From the NCBI GenBank assembly GCA_964016885.1, contig OZ024743.1, positions 235,290,001-235,354,000 on the forward strand: 64,000 nucleotides of DNA, given 5' to 3'. This DNA comes from Eledone cirrhosa. Its lineage: Eukaryota. Made by a program: the position numbers and the translations under genes. A model generated the notes under the pieces. It was not told where the DNA came from. It made no database searches and saw only the letters and a program-made list of their open reading frames with translations. Shown here one piece after another: positions 9,599-61,079 of the stretch. Positions within the stretch are counted from its first letter, which is position 1. Every line of letters starts with the position of its first letter.

Positions 9599-11538
9599 AA
9601 TAATAATAATAATGAAATTATTGTGTAATGTGCTCAGGTGCACAACAACTCGTCAATATAGTACATAGAATAATACACAAATGTCATGGAAGTACATGTT
9701 TGTATGTGTTAGCTGTAGTGTTGGCGGATCTCGGGAAGCATGGAGGCCTTAAAGGATGCAGTGTCTCGACAGCTAACAACTGATGCAGGTAGTTTGTTCC
9801 ATGCTTCAGCAACTCTGAGCGTGAAAAAATGTTTCCGAAAGTCATGGGAACTGTGCTGTTTTCTTACTTTGTGGGCATGTCCACGTGTGTTAGACACATA
9901 GAAATCGAAAAGGCACTCAGGGTTGTTGTTGGCAACATGGTTAACAATTTTGTGGGTGTTTACCAAGTCAGTTGCCAGGCGTCGGAGCTTCAATGAATCC
10001 ATGCCCAGGGAAGCAAGGCGCTCAGAGTATGGTAGATGCCTGATGGAGGGTATTCGCTTGGTTGCACGTCTCTGAACAGTTTCCAGGCGGTCAATGTCCT
10101 GAGCAAGATAGGGGTTCCAGACTGGTGATGCAAATTCTAAGTGTGGTCGCACCATAGCTGTATACAGCCTTAAATAGATATCTGGAGAGCGGCTGACAAA
10201 GGTCTTGCTGAGTGATGCTAAGACACCCTCGGCCCTCTTGACAATTTTAGAGACGTGCCTCGTCCAACGCAATCGCTGCTGACCGTAATGCCCAGGTCAC
10301 GTTCACAGGAAGACTTCTTGATATTAGTGCTGTGGAGGGAGTATGTTTTACTCCCAAAATGCATGGTGGTGCACTTGTCCACAGCTAGCTTGAGTTGCCA
10401 GTCTGAGATCCACTGTTGCATTGTGTCCAGGTCAGACTGCAAGCAAGATCTATAGTGTTCAGGATCTGTCCTTTTTATCTCAAGGTACAGCTTGATGTCG
10501 TCTGCGTACTTTAGTACTGTGGCATTCCTTAAGTTGGCATCTATGTCATCAATATATGCCACAAACAAAAGGGGGCCAAGAACAGATCCTTGAGGTACAC
10601 CAGATGACATCTCATATGGTGAGGAATGCTGTCCCAGAACCGTGACTACCTCTCTTCGACTGAGAATGAAGGACTTCAACCAGTTAAAAAGATCATCCTT
10701 CACACCTATTGCAGAGAGTTTTGCCATAAGCCTTTTGTGTGGCACAGAATTGAAGGCCTTCACAAAGTCAAGGTAAACAACATCCACCCATGAGCCGCCA
10801 TCAGTGATCTGGGTGATGTCCTCAAGAAACTCTATAAGTTGATCACAGCAGCTGGAGTTGGGGATAAATCCAAATTGCGAGGGCCGGATGAGACTGTGAG
10901 AGCTCCAGAAGTTCCAAAGTGTTTCTCTGACACAGGATTCCATCAGTTTGGCGATGCAACTAGTAAGACTGACTGGACGATAGTTCACAGGTGATGTGCG
11001 GTCACCCTTTTTGAACAGAGGAATGACACTGGCAGTTTTCCACTGTTCTGGAGTAGCACTGTTGTTCAGACAGAATTGGAAGAAGCGTGATAACTGGTGT
11101 AGAAGGAAGTACCCACCACGTTTAAGAAGCAGGTACGTAACACCATCAAGACCAGGAGAGGCATGGTTGCGTTTATTTTATAGGTTACGTCGCAGCATTG
11201 CAGGTGTAAATTCCATGGTTGTAATAGAGTCCGGTGTCATAGGTGGTGGAGATGGTACACTCTGGTCTTCAATGGTGAAAATGCCTGCATAGCATTCAGC
11301 AATGAGCTCTGCGCATTCCTTGGGGTCGTCAGTAACCTGGCTTGTGTGGGGATTGCGAAGAGGACCAACTGGAGAGTGAGGCCTCTGCTTTGAGTGAACA
11401 TACTTCCAGAACACCTTAGTGTCAGGGCTGGTTGCTATGCGCTGCTCAAATTGAAGCACTGCCTTTTTTGTCACCTGTTTGAGGTGGTTGGGCGATCTAT
11501 TTCGCCTCTTCCTATTAATGTCTGATTTGTGAAGTTTG
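9599..11538 (-). mobile_element. CR1-clade LINE, 5'-truncated pseudogenised copy inserted in the satellite
   Basis: Reverse complement of 1-1875 plus ~70 bp more 5' sequence, with its tail at ~9599-9613. Lesions: nonsense codon (RRNL*), 12-bp deletion (NPAS lost) and a 1-bp frameshift near 10270. Confidence 0.93.
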
Positions 11539-37855: not shown

Positions 37856-40800
37856 AGTTGCATTTATCTTTATGTTCATACGTATTATCTTTATGTTCAT
37901 ACATATTATCTTTATGTTCATACGAGTTATCACCAAGTCACAACCAGTGACCTCAAGAGACAACAAGGTCCGCCATGTTCAAGGAAGAACATACATACTC
38001 ACACATGCATCTTTAGTGTTTAGACTTGTGATGTACTTATATTGACAGAATCTTCTTTAGTATATGGGCAGTTCCCATTAGTACTATCTTTTGTATTTCT
38101 CCTATACGCGGGTTTCCTGGGATCTGCGATAAGTAATCATTAGACCCCTTAGGTATCATTCCCAGAGCGCCTACAACCACTGGTATTGTTTTAGTTCTCA
38201 ATTTCCACATTTTTCCAATTTCTATTTCCAGGTCCTTATACTTGCTCAATTTTTCAAATGTTTTTATAGATACATTCTTGTCTATTGGAACAGACATATC
38301 AATTAGCAGGCATACCCTCTTTTTAAAGTCCTTCAATATTATATCAGGTCTATTTGCATCTATTTTTCGGTCTGTTTGGATGCTAAAGTTCCACAAGATT
38401 GAGATGTGATCTTTTTCAAGTATGGGAGGTGGTTGATGCTCCCACCAATTCTTTTGATGGGGCAGGTCAAAATGCTTACACATTATCCAATGTATGTATT
38501 GTGCAGCTCTGTCATGCCTGTTTAGGTATTCGGTTGGAGCTATAGGACTGAACATTGAAATTATATGATCAATGGTCTCTGGTTGTTTTTTACATACACG
38601 GCATAATGGGCTGCATCCATTTTTTATTATGTTGGCTTGGTAATTTTTTGTTGGCAGACACTGATCTTGTGCTGATATAATCAGTCCTTCAGTCTCCGAT
38701 TTCAGTCCAGAGGATGCCAACCACTAATGGGTTAAAGTTTTGTCAACATCAGGATTGTTAGCTCGCTCTGGGTATTTTCCATACAGAGGCTTTTCTTGCC
38801 ATTTCTTAGCCAGTTTCTGTAGCAGTTCTTTCTTTGCAGTTACTTTTACCTGCTTTGCTTTTTCTGTGTTTTCCATTTCAGCAGTAAATGGGACTTCTGA
38901 AATTTGTAGTCCATTACTGTATCTTTGTGCATCTTTTGTAATGGAATATGATCTTTTGATGCTTTCGTGTTTCAAAACGAGTTTGATCATCCAATCATGT
39001 GATTCCCTTAGATATGTAGATAATCCAATTGTTGCAGTTTTCAACGCAATGTCTAACTGGATTAACCCACGTCCTCCTTCTTTCCTAGGGAGATATATTC
39101 TATCTATATCTGCCTTAGGGTGATGCATTCTGTGCATGGTTAAGAATTTTCGAATTTTTGTATCGAGCCTACGGATCTCTGTGCTTGACCAGTTGATGAC
39201 ATTGTAACTGTAGGTTACTACTGGTATGGCAAGCGTGTTTATGGCATCGATCCTATTCCTTGCAATCAATTCCGTTCTTAAGATTGCTCTTACTCTGCGG
39301 TAACATTCCTTCCTTATCCTTTCCCTCATTGTCGAGTGCTTGATTCCGTCTCCTTCACAAACACCTAGATATTTGTAAGTTTTTTCTTGATCAAGTTCTC
39401 TTATCACGTTCCCCCGATCAAGATTAATGTCTGAACTCTTCAGCAGCTTTCCTCTGGTGAACGTTGCTTTGGCGCATTTATCTCGTCCAAACTCCATTTT
39501 AATGTCATCACTGAACTGCTCCACAGTGGATAATAGCCCTTGCAATTGTTCATCATTTTTTGCAAATAGTTTCAGGTCATCCATGTAGAACAGGTGATTA
39601 ATGGTTTTGTCATAGACTTTATATCCATGTTTTGTTTCATTGAGCATTTTACTTAATGGTATAAGTGCGATGCAGAATAAAAGCGGTGATAAAGAGTCAC
39701 CCTGAAAAATTCCACAATTAATATTAACTTCTCCAGCTTCCAGTGATTTTGTTTCACTATTCAAAAGGAGTGTCGTTTTCCATGTCTTCATACTGAATGA
39801 CAAAAACCTCCTGACAACGGGGGATATTTTGAAAATCTCTAAACATTTTTCAATCCAACTGTGTGGCAAACTATCGAATGCTTTTTTATAATCTATCCAA
39901 GCAATCGATAGATTTTTGTGTCTATTATGACAATCTTCCAGTATCATTTTGTTAACCAGAAGCCGATCCTTACAGCCATATGAGCCTCGTTTACACCCTT
40001 TCTGCTCAATGGGAAATAGGTCATTTGTTATCAGGTGGTCATATGTGTATTCAGTTAGGACTGATGTTAAAATTTTATACATTGTGGTCAAGCAAGTTAT
40101 CGGTCTGTAATTTTGGGGATTGTTTGTCTCATCATTCTTCGGAAGCAGGAATGTAATGCCGTTAACTAGCCATGATGGTATCTTTTCTGGCTCCTTAACT
40201 ATTTCATTGTAAAGTTGGGCTAACAGCTCATGAGACTCTGTGAAGGCATTTATCCAAATGTTTTGTATTTTGTCTTTTCCTGGAGATTTCCATTTGCTGG
40301 TTTTTCTTAGAGCCAAGCGCAACTGTTCAACTGTTATATTTTCCCATATTTGTTCCTCAAGGTGAGCTGTATCTTTCATTTGTCTGTCTATCCATGGGGC
40401 ATGTATGTTATGAACTTTTTCTTCGGCCCAGATCTTTTCCCAGAATTCTTGCACTTCCTCCTTGGGTGGTATTGATTTAGCAGTTATTGTTGACTTACCA
40501 ATTTTTCTGTAGAAGTTTCTTTGGTTGTTTTTGAACATATTATTGTCCTTATAGAATCTAGATCGTTTTTCAAAGCGCCTTATACGAGCAGCTTTGGCCG
40601 ACACTTTTTGCTTGATTATTTCTATCAGCATGTCTATGTCACATGTTGATTTTATACTGTACTTTTTTTTCAATTTTCTAAGTTTAGTTTGTTTAACATG
40701 TTCACCTACTTTATAGTTTGTTAAAATTTCTATGTCAGATCGGAGAAGGTTTATTTGGCGATTGATGTTCTCTTGCCAAGTAGATTTCTTGTGGGAATTC

Positions 40801-41850
40801 CTTTGTTTTTTCATCTTCACTCCACATAAGTGAGTGGTGACTTTAGCCGATGCATAATAGAGATGATTTAAATCAGTAATGTTTAGTTTGTTTGTGATGA
40901 TAATGTTTTTGAGAATTATGTTAGTCTTGTGTATTATCTTTTGGTTCTGTTTGGAGTTCTGGATCTTAGGGAGGGTGTCTCGTTGCCCCATGTCAGATTC
41001 TTTCATTTTCATCCATTCGATCATAATTTCATCCTTCAAGTTGGCAAGTTCATTCTCATTCATTTCTTTATCATTTACGATCTCATTATTTTCATTTGGA
41101 GTTTCATCCTGAGCATGCACTCCCTCCACTTTTTCGATCCTTTCTTTAATTTGTTCTGTTGCCAGTGATTCCGCCCCAACCCTGGGGTTCGAAGTGTTAC
41201 AGTTTACCTCGTTTTCACTGACACATGTTTCATTTTCCCTTCGCTGACTTTGTGCTAATAGCTTGATCTGATCAATTTCTATATCAGTTAGTAACTTTTT
41301 TCTTACAATATTTCTTCGTATATTGGCTAGTTTGTTACTGTCAATATAGCCTCTGTTTTCGGGATGTTTCTTTTTCCAGTTGATATATGTCTGTTCTGTA
41401 TTCGATGTATTTGATGGGTAGTACATGGCAGTGTAGAAAGCCTCAAGGACTTCTTTATTATCTTCCCTTGACCATTTTTCTCTCTTTTTCTTTGGATTTC
41501 TTGGTGGTGAGCATGGAGGGCCAACAGAAGGAGTATTCCGGTTATGGGAGGTCTCCAGCTCCGAAGTGATGGGAAGGTTTGAACCATTAGCTGATTTTTC
41601 GACCCCAGTCTGGTTCCTCTCTGAGGGACGCGGCCCTTTTTTACCCGGGTGACGGCCGATCCGGTATGAGATTTTATCATTAGGCATTTACTTTATTTTG
41701 TCGCGTTTTATCCTTATCCGCCAAGGGGTAATCATTTCGTGTTACCACTTCTAGAACGAGTGTCAACCAAGACTAGAGGGGTCATTCTCCCCTAGAGACA
41801 CGGCTATTCCCCGCCGGCCGCCATCCCGGTATTTCTTGGTCACGGGGTTT
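37809..41850 (-). mobile_element. R4/Dong-clade non-LTR retrotransposon (single ORF, RT plus restriction-like endonuclease), apparently full length
   Basis: (TAA)n tail at 37809-37854, 3' UTR with three ~21-bp repeats, long ORF, and a ~160-nt GC-rich 5' leader. Confidence 0.9.
38037..41687 (-). pseudogene. R4/Dong ORF (~1215 aa) with one in-frame TAG
   Basis: RT motifs [30 protein letters not shown] and YMDD. After the stop (TH*WLASS, same frame) come CRVC..H, RHD, RPDI..IDMSVP..K..KY. Confidence 0.9.
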
Positions 41851-43253: not shown

Positions 43254-45375
43254 TTATTATTATTATTATTATTATTGTTGTTATTACTCTTTGAGTCTCA
43301 GTCATTGTTGTTAGTTAACTGGAAAGTTTGTTGAAATGAATATCAAGCCACTACCTGCAGCCTCAGATATTCAGGACGTATCGGAGGGTTCTTGCTGTTC
43401 CCAGCAAGCATGCCTTTTGAAGCGTTCCAAAAAGCGTGAAGGGGCCAATTTTCTTTAACCATCCCTGGAAACTTTTTGAGATAGTCCCAAGTGCGCCTAT
43501 GACAATCGGGATCACTTTGACTTCATGGCAGTTCCAAATCCTTTTTACCTCCCACTTTAAGTCCTGGTATCGGTTAATTTTCTCCCTCTCCTTCTCTTGC
43601 ACTCTCGTGTCGAATGGGCAGGCCACATCCACAATCAGGCACGATCTTTTTTCTTTGTCCACAACCACCAGGTCAGGTCTATTGTGTTCCAGTTTCTTGT
43701 CCCTCTGTATCCTAAAATCCCACAGCACCTTCACCTGATCGTTTTCTATCACCGCCTCTGGCTTATGCTCATACCACTTCTCAGAATGTGGTAAATTGTT
43801 TACTTTGCATAGGTGCCAGTGGATCACCCTGCCCATCACATCATGTCTCCAGCCCTTATAGTGAGTCTGGGCTAGGTGTTTACACTCGGATACAATGTGA
43901 GCCACAGTCTCCTCTCTCTCTCCACAGATCCTGCACAGTGGGCTAGCCTCCTCCTTGTAAATATGGTGTTTCAACCACTTCGTTTTGAGGGCCTGCTCCT
44001 GCGCAGCCATTAACATTGCTTCTGTAGCCTTTTTAAGGTCTCCTCTTTTCAACCAGTTCCATGTCTGTGGATCTCTAAATTCAGTTTTCTCAAACAAGGT
44101 ACTATGAAGGGATTTTTCCTGAAGGCTGCTCTTTCTCCTTGATGTTATTTCCTCCTTGGACATCCCCTGGCCTATTGTCCCCTCCTTCAGTACAGTTCTG
44201 AGCATTGGCTCCTTACTATCAGTCACGTATTTGTGTAGGTTGTTTTTCTCCATCTGAACACAGTCCTCTATGCTGATAAGACCTCTTCCACCCTCAGATC
44301 TCCTTAAGTAGAGTCTATCGACATCACTCCTCTTGTGGAACATATTGTAGATAGTCAATAGCTTCCTAGTCTTCCTATCCATTTTTGTTTGTTCAGCAAC
44401 ATTCCATCTCAGAATTCCCGCACTGTACCTAATAATAGACACAGCTCGGGAATTTACTGCACTTATGGCATTCCTACTGTTCAGATGTGACTTTAATACG
44501 CTCCTTACTCTCCGAATGTATTCAGTTCTTATCAATTCCTTCATTTTTTTGTTCTTGATGTCATCAGCCTCCAGAACGCCCAAATACTTGTATCCTTCTT
44601 CAGAGTCAATTTCCTTTATCATCTCACCCGTTGGTACCTGGATTCCGTTACTTCTGCTCAACTCACCCCTCTTCATCACAATGACTCCACACTTACTAAT
44701 ACCAAATTGCATACATATATCATTGGTGAAAATACGGACAGTGTCAACAAGCACATCCAACTCCTTCTCACTCTTCCCGAAGAGCTTAAGATCGTCCATG
44801 AAGAGGAGGTGATTGATGGTAAGCCCTCCCTTTCCCAACCTGTATCCTGCTCTCACTTTTCGCAGTACACTGGTCAGGGGCATCAGGGCAAGGACAAACA
44901 ACAGAGGGGACACACTATCTCCCTGGAAGATACCTCTCTTGATCTTCACGCTTCCCAAGGATTCTCCAGTTGATGTTAACTCTGTTTCCCAGGACTTCAT
45001 ACTTTTGCCCAACAACTGTCTGATGTTATCTGCCACCTTGAAGATCTCCAGGTTTTTGGTGATCCAAGAATGAGGCACCATGTCAAATGCCTTTTTGTAG
45101 TCTATCCATCCCATGGCAAGACCAGTGTGTCTCCTCTTGCAATTCCTCATTACCATCTTATCAATAAGTAACTGGTCCTTTGTACCACGTGACTTCTTTC
45201 GGCATCCTTTCTGTTCGTCCGGTAACAAGTTGTTTGTGTGGAGGTGATGGTAGATTTCCTCAGACATAATGCTTGTCAACAGTTTCCACATTACGGACAG
45301 ACATGTGATAGGTCTATAGATGGTAACATCATTATCCTTGATTCGGTCTTTCATTATCAGAACTGTGGTACCTCT
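43254..45375 (-). mobile_element. 5'-truncated R4/Dong-clade LINE, second family (open 663-aa RT-RLE frame 43363-45354)
   Basis: [45 protein letters not shown] and a (TAA)n tail. Confidence 0.9.
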
Positions 45376-45415
45376 ATATATATATATTATTATTATTATT
45401 AATATTAATAATCAA

Positions 45416-45629: not shown

Positions 45630-45667
<38 letters not shown>

Positions 45668-45729
45668 ACGAGAAAACTATATATTTTCGACTGTTCTCAA
45701 GTCCAGCAGTCGCAAGCGTGGGAGGTATC

Positions 45730-45767
45730 ATCCTGACGAAGACTAATTAAGTCTGAAATGCATCGAC
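45730..45767 (+). ncRNA. Minimal hammerhead ribozyme core (stem I degenerate)
   Basis: CTGACGA-agact(aatta)agtct-GAA-ATGCAT-C, with a palindromic stem III. Confidence 0.5.
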
Positions 45768-46149
45768 TATTGTCCCCCTTGCTTCTGCTGGACACAACCA
45801 GAGGGCGTTAGCCCCGGTGTTTTTTGCATAGCTACAGCCTCCTAAATGTTTAAGGTATAAACATACCGTATTTCTTAAGAAATACGAAATTTCTATACAT
45901 ATCTATATATATATATATATATATATACAATTAAGTTAAAAATGTACATCCACATATGTATACTGAAATACTAGTATGCATATGAATACACACACGTATA
46001 CATATGTAGATGTACCGAGTTTTTCACTGGTCACTTTACTGTGAGTGTCCAGCTATTCTGTATGTAAACACACAGACAAACCGGTTTTTAGAGTCATACT
46101 GGTTTTTGAGGAAACACCTTTCCTCTATTCTCCAGAAAGCCAGACAAGG

Positions 46150-46194
46150 AATATTGAACTAGTTTCGATGTTGTTACATCTCATCAGCAACATT
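46150..46194 (-). ncRNA. Type-I minimal hammerhead ribozyme (element A, inverted copy)
   Basis: aatgttg-CTGATGA-gatgt(aaca)acatc-GAA-ACTAGT-T-caatatt on the minus strand. Confidence 0.8.
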
Positions 46195-46573
46195 TACCTA
46201 TCTTCCGGCCTTTCTAGAGAATCGTAAAAGCACATATCGTTATATGCTTTTTCTATGAAAATTAGTAGTGGGCAGACTAATTTGCATAGAGCGTGAGTAC
46301 GTACCGGTTCAACGGAGACGATAAAAACAAATAACGAAGCGAAATTAAATTTCGTTTCGTTTGTAACTCACCTTTGTATGACTGACGCTTAAACAATTAA
46401 GTTACAAACGAAACGAAATTTAATTTCGTTTCGTTATTTGTTTTTATCGTCTCCGTTGAACCGGTACGTACTTACACTCTATGCAAATTAGTCTGCCCAC
46501 TACTAATTTTCATAGAAAAAGCATATAACGATATGTGCTTTTACGATTCTCTAGAAAGGCCGGAAGATAGGTA

Positions 46574-46618
46574 AATATTGCTGATGAGATGTAACAACAT
46601 CGAAACTAGTTCAATATT
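46574..46618 (+). ncRNA. Type-I minimal hammerhead ribozyme (element A)
   Basis: aatattg-CTGATGA-gatgt(aaca)acatc-GAA-ACTAGT-T-caatatt: 7-bp stem I, 5-bp stem II, palindromic stem III, GUU site. Confidence 0.85.
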
Positions 46619-47039
46619 CCTTGTCTGGCTTTCTGGAGAATAGAGGAAAGGTGTTTCCTCAAAAACCAGTATGACTCTAAAAACCGGTTTGTCTGTGTGT
46701 TTACATACAGAATAGCTGGACACTCACAGTAAAGTGACCAGTGAAAAACTCGGTACATCTACATATGTATACGTGTGTGTATTCATATGCATACTAGTAT
46801 TTCAGTATACATATGTGGATGTACATTTTTAACTTAATTGTTTAAGCGTCAGTCATACAAAAGTGAGTTACAAACGAAACGAAATTTAATTTCGTTTCGT
46901 TATTTGTTTTTATCGTCTCCGTTGAACCGGTACGTACTCACGCTCTATGCAAATTAGTCTGCCCACTACTAATTTTCATAGAAAAAGCATATAACGATAT
47001 GTGCTTTTACGATTCTCTAGAAAGGCCGGAAGATAGGTA

Positions 47040-47084
47040 AATATTGCTGATGAGATGTAACAACATCGAAACTAGTTCAATATT
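47040..47084 (+). ncRNA. Type-I minimal hammerhead ribozyme (element A, second tandem copy)
   Basis: Identical to 46574-46618, offset by 466 bp. Confidence 0.85.
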
Positions 47085-47372
47085 CCTTGTCTGGCTTTCT
47101 GGAGAATAGAGGAAAGGTGTTTCCTCAAAAACCAGTATGACTCTAAAAACCGGTTTGTCTGTGTGTTTACATACAGAATAGCTGGACACTCACAGTAAAG
47201 TGACCAGTGAAAAACACGGTACATCTACATATGTATACGTGTGTGTATTCATATGCATACTAGTATTTCAGTATACATATGTGGATGTACATTTTTAACT
47301 TAATTGTTTAAGCGTCAGTCATACAAAAGTGAGTTACAAACGAAACGAAATTTAATTTCGTTTCGTTATTTG

Positions 47373-47411
<39 letters not shown>

Positions 47412-47414
<3 letters not shown>

Positions 47415-47612
47415 ACGAAGGAAGTATGGTAAGATACCAGGTGAACCATAACACACCAGAGTACTCGATACTTTGGTAGTAAAGTGGATAATAGGAAAAT
47501 GTTCAAGACCCCGACGGCAGAGCTCAAGCCTTTCGACGGCTATTTCTGGACTGAAATAGCCGTCGAAACGGCTTGAGCTCTGTCGTCGGGGTCTTGAACA
47601 TTTCCCTATATT
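47412..47612. mobile_element. Fold-back copy of dispersed element D (other copies at 58522-58660 and ~61800-61992)
   Basis: ~56-bp inverted arms around tggact at ~47547-47552. Abuts (TA)n at ataacgaagg. Confidence 0.65.
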
Positions 47613-58521: not shown

Positions 58522-58658
58522 ATAACGAAGGAAGTGTGGTAAGGAACCAGGTGGACCATAACGCGCCAGAGTACTCAATACTTAGGGTATAGAGTGGGTC
58601 ATAGGAAAATGTTTAACCACAACGGCTTGAGCTCTGCCGTCGGGGTTAAACATTTTTC

Positions 58659-58660
<2 letters not shown>
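58522..58660. mobile_element. Second fold-back copy of element D between (TA)n tracts
   Basis: Matches 47412-47505, then switches strand to aacggcttgagctctgccgtcggggttaaacatttttcta. Confidence 0.6.
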
Positions 58661-59372: not shown

Positions 59373-59375
<3 letters not shown>

Positions 59376-60025
59376 CGAATATATTACACAGAGAGAAGTG
59401 TGTTACACAGTGAGATGTGTGTAAAGAATTAATACATGTGAGTTTAACCGTTACTGTGTGGAAAACAACACCTACAGGTTGGCAATTAAATAGAAAGAAC
59501 ACTAAGTCAGAATCAAATCTCCGAAGTAGAGTTTTAAATTACCAACCTTATCTTCCCCAATTCATGAGAGCCGTTATTTGATGCAAATAACACGTGTTTT
59601 CGCCCTGCTCTGGGCAGCGTGTATATTTGCGTTCTCTCTTTCCATTAGGCTAGATGTGTAGCTAACAATTCCACACTCGTGGACTGAGGACCCTGTGTAC
59701 TTTTACACTACACATTTCAGTGGCGAAACGAACTAGATTCGTATCAGCAAGCTTATAGTTATAAGGTTGGTAATTTAAAACTCTACTTCGGAGATTTGAT
59801 TCTGACTTAGTTTTCTTTCTATTTAATTGCCAACCTGTAGGTGTTGTTTTCCATACAGTAACGGTTAAACTCATATGTAATAATTCTTTACACACATCTC
59901 ACTGTGTAACACACTTCTCTCTGTGTAATATATTTGTATTTGAGCTCAGTTGAAAATTCTCTGTTCTTCTTTGAGCTAATATTATTATTACTGTGAACTG
60001 CGGAATACTCTAATTCCGATCCTTG
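59373..60025. mobile_element. Penelope pLTR/retrozyme-like element C (inverted arm plus forward arm) in (TA)n
   Basis: 59373-59551 is the reverse complement of ~59761-59939. Hammerhead-like core at 59684-59743. Confidence 0.65.
59680..59748 (+). ncRNA. Hammerhead ribozyme candidate (element C)
   Basis: CTGAGGA-[ccctg/tgtgta..tacaca/cagtgg]c-GAA-Acgaa(ctaga)ttcgT-A. Stem I has only 2 bp. Confidence 0.5.
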
Positions 60026-60121
<96 letters not shown>

Positions 60122-60366
60122 TAGATATAGATATAGATATATATATATGTATATATATATATAAGTATGTACACGTACATACATATATGTATACAGACGT
60201 ACAGTAGTATGTATATATATATACAAACATGCACACATATATATATGTACATATGGATTCACCGAACATTTATTATAATGCTCGGTGTGTTTGTAAACAA
60301 ACATCCCGTATTAAGCCGTAGTGTCTAGTAACCATCGTTGCTCGTTTGTTCAGCACTGACAAAGGA

Positions 60367-60409
60367 ATGCTGTACCAGTTTCAAGCTTATTAGCTATCGT
60401 CAGCAACGT
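60367..60409 (-). ncRNA. Minimal hammerhead ribozyme (element B, inverted copy)
   Basis: acgttg-CTGACGA-tagct(aata)agctt-GAA-ACTGGT-A-cagcat on the minus strand. Confidence 0.62.
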
Positions 60410-60675
60410 ATACCTTCCTGCCAGAGTCTTAAACGTATATACTTACCTTATGCATACTACTGTACGTCTGTATACATATATGTATGTACATGTACATACT
60501 TATATTTAAGTAACAGCCGTACTAAGAGTGGGAAATGAAAATTTCGTTTCATTTTTTCCGTTTATCGTTTTCGCTGCACCCGGCCGATTAACCCACTCAA
60601 TATGCAAATTGGGCTACTCAGCCGTTAATATGCATAAGGTAAGTATATACGTTCAACAATCTGGCAGGAAGGTAT

Positions 60676-60718
60676 ACGTTGCTGACGATAGCTAATAGGC
60701 TTGAAACTAGTACAGCGT
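60676..60718 (+). ncRNA. Minimal hammerhead ribozyme (element B)
   Basis: acgttg-CTGACGA-tagct(aata)ggctt-GAA-ACTAGT-A-cagcgt, with palindromic stem III and a GUA site. Confidence 0.72.
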
Positions 60719-60984
60719 TCCTTTGTCAGTGCTGAACAAACGAGCAACGATGGTTGCTAGACACTACGGCTTAATACGGGATGTTTGTTTACAAACACAC
60801 CGAGCATTATAATAAATGTTCGGTGAATCCATACGTACATATATATATATGTGTACCTGTATGTGTATATATAAACATACTACTGTACGTCTGTATACAT
60901 ATATGTATGTACGTGTACATACTTATATTTAAGTAACAGCCGTACTAAGAGTGGGAAATGAAATTTCGTTTAATTTTTTCCGTT

Positions 60985-61079
<95 letters not shown>

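Follow-up and report, generated by a model that had tools for sequence, protein, structure and literature searches.

A 466-bp hammerhead retrozyme in Eledone cirrhosa with a U6-type promoter match and paired ends that point to mobilisation by Penelope-like elements

Non-LTR retrozymes have been defined as a class, with RNA circles shown in coral, mussel and axolotl and Penelope-like elements (PLEs) named as candidate mobilisers (Cervera and de la Pena 2020, PMC7229834). A study of Xenopus retrozymes added homology to the terminal repeats of PLEs (pLTRs) and obtained in vitro cleavage from only one of nine dimers (Li, Clavereau and Pollet, bioRxiv 10.64898/2026.07.22.740005). Both sources state as open how animal retrozymes are transcribed and mobilised; in those of their sections available to us, the link to PLEs is drawn from co-occurrence and pLTR homology, and neither a two-site end rule nor a promoter is reported. 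In-unit promoters are described for newt satellite 2 (snRNA-type Pol II) and for the schistosome hammerhead satellite (Pol III), and cleavage in amphibians depends on dimers (PMC2220036, PMC7229834). Insertions of PLEs carry an inverted arm and a tail of 30-40 bp at one end (PMC8557442, PMC3846280). In work with a purified PLE protein, both strands of AT-rich DNA were nicked and extended, priming started at two internal RNA sites, and the interval between these sites forms the genomic tail; the later steps of integration are called unvalidated (PMC11167929).

The window analysed here is a stretch of 64,000 nucleotides from Eledone cirrhosa (GCA_964016885.1, contig OZ024743.1, forward-strand positions 235,290,001 to 235,354,000). 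The element in it is one copy of the known class of non-LTR retrozymes, a young insertion of a 466-bp hammerhead repeat that is non-coding and present in many copies. An earlier note on this DNA had described three near-identical non-coding units of 466 bp, one inverted and two in tandem, between (TA)n tracts, and this picture was borne out by TRF (period 466 bp, 2.1 copies, 46400-47379), by a 99% inverted repeat pairing 45924-46408 with 46826-47310, and by three ribozyme cores. The inverted-plus-tandem arrangement stood; the arms, however, are not whole units cut at the ribozyme. Numbering the unit so that phase 1 is the first base after the predicted cut (46612), the inverted arm (45927..46404, minus strand) holds about 1.0 unit and has its 3' end at a site that we call S1 (phase ~230), whereas the forward arm (46400..47379, plus strand, from TRF and end mapping) holds 2.1 units and has its 3' end at a second site, S2 (phase 302). 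The arms meet head to head with a 5-base overlap at 46400..46404. Only the end of the forward arm carries the interval between S1 and S2, a tail of 70-74 nt at 47306..47379 with a 13-bp hairpin. Target tracts of (TA)n were delimited by TRF on the left (45894..45927) and on the right (47377..47414), and since both ends lie within them a target-site duplication is unreadable.

The two units of the forward arm differ at 3 of 466 positions, G+C amounts to 166 of 466 in the monomer, and the longest ATG-started frame in the unit has 50 codons, so that the unit holds no ORF; the tail encodes no ORF start. No ORF for a telomerase-like RT or a GIY-YIG endonuclease, of the kind that an autonomous PLE carries, was found in the element, and no PLE ORF was seen in its surroundings in the window, which consist of satellites and of RT frames of LINE type. 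Two elements with a LINE-type RT (Pfam RVT_1), possibly R4/Dong-like, lie on the minus strand at 38037-41687 and 43363-45411; one of them consists of a 987-aa frame, one stop and a 228-aa frame. The window also contains a short high-copy hairpin element of very high contig depth that adjoins (TA)n (47415-47610 and 58525-58660), two long 99% inverted repeats (1,122 and 667 nt) around a 61-bp satellite array (1-1875 and 9606-11467), and an inverted-arm element with 179-nt arms and a hammerhead-like core with a longer stem III and no assignable stem I near 59682 (59373-59939).

Like metazoan non-LTR retrozymes, as far as these are described in the parts of the reports available to us, the element consists of non-coding tandem units with one type I hammerhead each, a GC content below 50% and a structured monomer, in a genome that contains PLEs (PMC7229834; 10.64898/2026.07.22.740005), and its unit falls in the 51-972 bp range of the preprint (10.64898/2026.07.22.740005). 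It differs from them in that its link to PLEs is an insertion footprint, no pLTR homologue being found among 35 GIY-YIG loci compared, and in having a U6-type element in each unit; circles have been shown in known retrozymes and are predicted here. With EN+ PLEs (PAc, PMC11167929; PMC3846280; PMC8557442) it shares an inverted 5'-truncated arm joined to a tandem arm, a tail at one end, (TA)n or AT-rich targets and a hammerhead in the repeat. Unlike EN+ PLEs, the family has no RT or GIY-YIG ORF, its tail measures 70-74 nt instead of 30-40 nt, its arrays reach about 32 units, and its hammerhead is canonical and not minimal. Newt satellite 2 and the schistosome hammerhead satellite are likewise hammerhead repeats with in-unit promoters (PMC2220036, PMC7229834), but the promoter match in the 466-bp unit is to the host U6, U6atac and MRP genes and not to U1, U2 or U5. 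Non-autonomous Chlamys PLEs such as MRC1 resemble it as non-coding, multicopy head-to-tail insertions mobilised by a PLE; they are, however, similar at the 3' end to their autonomous counterparts, and canonical hammerheads are lacking in PLEs with an N-terminal endonuclease, according to the sections of that source available to us (PMC8557442). The class itself is already described; the strict paired ends, the U6-type promoter match and some arrays that are letter-identical across both arms go beyond what the sources cited here report. No cephalopod retrozyme, U6-type promoter in a retrozyme or two-site retrozyme end rule was found by title in the full-text literature searched, in which coverage of subscription papers was thin.

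Every unit contains a full hammerhead core with a 7-bp stem I, a 5-bp stem II and an ACTAGT palindrome in place of stem III, just as the earlier note had described. The motif and an Rfam search agree in placing hammerheads at 46574..46618 and 47040..47084 on the plus strand and at 46150..46194 on the minus strand, with cores starting at 46581(+), 47047(+) and 46187(-). The cleavage nucleotide H17 maps to 46611, 47077 and 46157, the first two being the cuts predicted before. Rfam model Hammerhead_HH9 matched all three at 34.9-36.5 bits (E 1.6e-6 to 5.1e-6), scores that lie below its gathering score of 52; Rfam microRNA matches over the region were rejected as hairpin matches below the gathering score. 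One point had to be corrected: the ribozyme had been taken for the minimal type, and its motif instead fits the canonical metazoan type I hammerhead, with its short palindromic helix III (PMC4209133), and not the min-HHR of PLE pLTRs. The change of a stem I pair from A-U to G.U in the inverted copy is real (A-to-G at 46191), but it is weak evidence by itself because only 145 of 466 possible transitions would break a predicted pair.

Comparison among copies gave further information on pairing. In all, 65 loci were examined, a small share of the family: 21 were taken by similarity to the unit in the window, 20 comprised first-listed core matches on contig 1 and a single locus met by chance, and the remaining 24 came mostly from a second form of stem II, in which a U-A pair replaces A-U. 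Across the genome the exact 30-nt core pattern occurs 2,603 times with A-U and 5,218 times with U-A, against 3 + 3 copies with mismatched forms; this swap counts as a single compensatory event and not as thousands. A predicted pair is broken by 22 of 89 variants that loci have in common, compared with 30 of 67 private variants (Fisher p = 0.01), and seven compensatory pair types occur in the predicted fold of the unit. No core position varies across the 65 loci, against 138 of all 466 positions, a comparison in which 43 loci came from core-pattern samples; in the 22 loci not chosen by core, 0 of 11 core positions vary, which is not significant relative to the flanks (P ~0.12). The sister family described below keeps the core and has different but paired stems.

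Folding indicates how two ribozymes might act together. The predicted cut-to-cut monomer RNA of 466 nt (46612..47077, plus strand) is highly structured, with a fold z of -12 against shuffles. For a transcript running from the predicted start through the second ribozyme, the minimum-energy fold is a double-hammerhead pairing in which the palindromes pair with each other and the stem I strands are swapped; the constrained double form reaches -187.5 kcal/mol, compared with -183.2 for two single forms. Pairing probabilities are about 0.05 for local stem I, 0.9 for the swapped stems and 0.48 for the palindromes, and the inner stem of the double hammerhead is supplied by the monomer's own fold.

The family comprises at least 7,821 exact ribozyme cores and at least 2,002 end junctions in the 3.0-Gb genome, and it shows the retrozyme traits of dispersed high copy number, low GC and a structured monomer. 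One end junction was found at least 2,002 times as an exact pattern, all dispersed; the pattern of the other end gave 739 forward matches, with a reverse count inflated by multiple gap lengths. The 65 loci contain 118 arms, of which 6 are cut by the edge of the sequence taken for that locus, 52 end at S1 (phases 226-234), 55 at S2 (299-303) and 5 elsewhere. Thus 107 of 112 uncut arms end at one of two sites about 70 nt apart, and 90 of these 107 run into TA-rich DNA, the kind of target also seen at the 2,002 exact junctions. Head-to-head pairs number 50; 6 have an end out of view, and among the 44 fully seen pairs 40 combine S1 with S2, in the two orders 22 and 18 times, while none uses one site twice. 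These 40 pairs show the inverted 5'-truncated arm with a tail at one end only, and the other four have one odd-ended arm (L039, L057, L124 and L131). The rule is present in each of the three samples (14, 14 and 12 pairs), and by our own arithmetic 40 discordant pairs would arise under independent 50:50 choice with a probability of about 1e-12. The sister family has homologous ends; S1+S2 accounts for 6 of its 8 pairs in full view, and no pair is same-site.

Such paired ends very probably represent the tail footprint of Penelope integration, in which the acting enzyme is deduced from the pattern that it would leave. A pairing of 40 to 0 is also a strong genomic constraint on the integration mechanism of Penelope. 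Together with the lack of an ORF and of coding flanks, the footprint supports the proposal of the earlier note that this is a non-autonomous hammerhead tandem retroelement mobilised in trans. The same statistics bear on the idea of satellite DNA spread by recombination at the DNA level, with a decayed or incidental ribozyme. Long arrays with satellite-like shared variants are what it would lead one to see, but at least 2,002 dispersed junctions at one fixed site, paired S1/S2 ends with random 5' truncation and selection on RNA pairing speak against it; the end statistics have already largely refuted this idea, which we regard as extremely improbable. Two other explanations of the ends were rejected. 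S2 is not a Pol III terminator, as the homologous end in the sister family lies 8 nt beyond a T run, and simple fold-back synthesis of the second arm is not the rule, as the two 5' phases usually differ (possible exceptions are L040, L044 and L048).

A partner was sought among GIY-YIG genes, with the best 150 of 10,597 candidates scored and 35 loci examined for similarity to the unit, using BLAST and a two-family profile. None of these 35 loci yielded an autonomous PLE with sequence in common with the unit. Homology to pLTRs amounted to two weak low-complexity end matches, both confined to the sister family (p 0.01-0.02 in a set of 36 comparisons), and a 30-nt match in three GIY-YIG loci was discarded as chance, since it came from A-rich coding sequence and lay on the opposite strand. 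Of the 18 RT+GIY-YIG loci that were looked at, three (L092, L098 and L101) had both ends clear and lying in TA, and in each of them just one arm bore a tail, of about 36-40 nt. Three RT+GIY-YIG proteins were confirmed by Pfam, and 4 of 5 carry, before the nuclease, the CX2-5CxxC motif of the Neptune and Nematis clades (PMC8557442). Because the ends of the 466-bp family match the PLE footprint and native RT+GIY-YIG loci show one-tail arms, the putative mobiliser is most likely a PLE of this genome.

The units could alternatively be truncated terminal repeats (pLTRs) of an ordinary autonomous PLE. An inverted-plus-tandem insertion with a tail is indeed the normal form of a PLE (PMC3846280, PMC8557442), and the partner search took in only 35 loci of the 10,597 candidates. 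However, an arm that exceeds one unit in length continues into the unit again and can cross as many as 31 cut sites, and the 5' ends of arms with no detected partner arm enter shared or coding sequence in 0 of 18 cases. The tail, moreover, has no ORF start, and short-read contigs showed no common branch leaving the unit except into TA among the loose ends listed. We therefore consider the pLTR explanation very unlikely, and return to a non-coding repeat copied in trans.

What served as template was approached through the 5' ends and the arrays. The 5' ends are spread evenly along the unit (KS p = 0.29), with 1 of 118 within 5 nt of the cut, and 11 copies genome-wide start at the cut, compared with about 8 expected from uniform truncation by our own estimate. 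Because of this uniformity and the lack of an excess at the cut, a cleaved linear monomer is not the main template, and the ends of the element are set by two sites other than the ribozyme cut. Complete arms cross at least one predicted cut in 93 of 107 cases and at least two in 38 of 107, in loci that had been chosen because they contain a core or a full unit. Arrays with at least three full units number 17, and 10 of them have no variants common to units; units are identical over both arms in L177 (14 of 14), L044 (7 of 7) and L033 (6 of 6). Letter-identical arrays favour rolling-circle copying, though identity between units could partly reflect assembly polishing. From these arrays and from the circles of other retrozymes, the template was probably a predicted RNA circle.

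A different course would be that the same PLE-mobilised element is copied from a linear multimer that stays uncut and arises by read-through of an array already in place, with ribozyme and circle having no part in insertion. Seven of the 17 arrays have variants shared between units, four of them at 7-14 such sites, and in L037 seven shared variants span both arms, a pattern not obtainable from a single monomer circle by itself. A 4-base deletion, found in three arms from two loci, is limited to the 5'-most unit and hints at some linear copying; the S1/S2 footprint requires no circle; and in an anole PLE the ribozyme is dispensable for insertion and unprocessed RNA is used (PMC11167929). On the other hand, many subfamilies have differences (up to 13) fixed throughout the units of both arms, a state that requires a one-unit stage and subsequent re-expansion. 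Nor do 5' ends cluster where transcription is predicted to start (2 of 118 lie in phases 405-418), and the ribozyme has undergone compensatory change. A linear multimer as the template thus appears unlikely. The circle explains both the arrays without shared variants and the subfamilies with differences fixed in all units, and mixed arrays need later exchange or a multimer template. Two further observations concern sequence variation. A rare variant near phases 319-331 is present only in the 5'-most unit of an arm in L038, L039, L044, L048 and the window, in three subfamilies. A footprint of A-to-I editing was rejected, shared changes being A>G in 18 cases and T>C in 20.

Inspection of sequences upstream of host small RNA genes revealed a promoter match inside the unit. 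Phases 335-352 match an 18-nt element located at -77 to -79 of three independent U6 loci, which by matrix lies at 46480..46497 (+), 46946-46963 (+) and 46271-46288 (-) in the window. A matrix built from the three U6 loci scored 18.9 bits on the monomer, a value reached by 0 of 1000 dinucleotide shuffles, and 11.3 bits on the sister family (8 of 1000 shuffles); nine dispersed U6 copies were left out of the matrix as they had no promoter-like upstream region. Held-out MRP and U6atac genes carry the element at -78 (11.2 and 13.8 bits), U6atac in one of three loci, the other two copies being without it, as is one U6 array variant (L120). Eleven U1/U2/U5 loci and the RNase P gene scored at most 4.8 bits, and a Pol II snRNA promoter was rejected since the element is absent from the 11 U1/U2/U5 loci.

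A TATA-like box follows 44 nt after the element begins, at 46523..46528 (+), 46989-46994 (+) and 46240-46245 (-); it is unchanged in the 65 loci and gives a predicted start at about 46554-46558. The unit thus has the upstream element and TATA box of a host type 3 Pol III unit without the host spacing: the two are 43-44 nt apart in the repeats and 47-49 nt apart in five host genes, a difference of 3-6 nt. The usual unit has T runs no longer than T5, whereas host U6 terminators are T7-T10; T7 or longer occurs inside 48 units, several of them in multi-unit arrays, and the element is altered in some amplified copies (342G in 7 of 65 loci). The shorter spacing, these alterations and the internal T7 runs speak against Pol III. 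Across the genome, the element upstream of a hammerhead core was found 24,674 and 9,016 times in two distance windows, with 1 and 4 matches in reversed controls. The first set is nearly all sister family, and the second mostly the 466-bp family, among the matches listed.

The element is shared with two other hammerhead families, and the three families may have one ancestor, so that they would not count as independent captures. The sister family, with a 423-bp unit 68% alike in part, is represented in the window at 60156..60987 by an inverted-plus-forward insertion with S1/S2 ends, the U6-type element and a hammerhead; by the promoter-plus-core pattern (24,674 matches) it is about three times as abundant. 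A 5'-truncated, decayed copy of the third family neighbours the 466-bp element and is separate from it (45661..45895, plus strand, core 45733). This family has an ATGCAT palindrome, and its other copies, apparently circularly permuted non-coding units, have the U6-type element with TATA at 44 nt.

On the basis of these results, we consider it likely that the whole forms one cycle: a 466-bp retrozyme with a U6-type promoter, predicted self-cutting and probable circles would be copied in trans by a PLE into (TA)n. Pol III would probably start about 55 nt upstream of the cut site, from a promoter in the same repeat unit, and read through T4-T5. Successive ribozymes would then, with good likelihood, form a double hammerhead by pairing at their ACUAGU palindromes and release unit-length RNA, which, judging from other retrozymes and the identical arrays, would probably be ligated into a circle. 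For insertion, the footprint makes it very likely that a PLE protein would nick both strands of a TA tract, one priming at S1 and the other at S2; both cDNAs would go round the template for a random length and be joined head to head. Unequal exchange may later mix long arrays. We tentatively put forward a wider reading, in which more than 30,000 hammerhead repeats would be self-contained Pol III circle factories, their in-unit U6-type promoter regenerated by tandem copying, with a dimeric Penelope protein priming both nicked strands on the circle at two fixed sites. They might then be promoter-capturing Penelope parasites and not decayed pLTRs, and if so, their insertions would record the two-site mechanism of Penelope thousands of times. 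The 466-bp family offers a short, abundant and recently active substrate with exact predictions: transcription should start near 46554-46558, the RNA should be cut after 46611 and 47077, and two priming sites about 70 nt apart should always act as a pair. Its natural promoter-plus-twin-ribozyme unit is, in addition, a candidate cassette for the production of circular RNA.

Several observations were made on U6-type elements and snRNA genes beyond these families. More dispersed hammerhead-like motifs lie behind a U6-type element (L213:1500-1700; L245-L250), some with the host-like 48-nt spacing; in L213 a T9 run follows, as in a small Pol III gene, and no Rfam hammerhead match was obtained there at E 0.01. 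Comparison of U1, U2, U5, RNase P, U6, U6atac and MRP loci (L106-L116, L187-L189, L222-L232) indicated two apparent snRNA-type upstream elements, one near -57 (U1, U2, U5, RNase P) and one at -78 (U6, U6atac, MRP), so that the upstream element of the RNase P gene groups with Pol II snRNAs. Promoterless U6 and U6atac copies begin directly after (TA)n-like tracts (L168-L170, L175, L190, L191), which suggests that Pol III RNAs have been retroposed into the same (TA)n-like targets.
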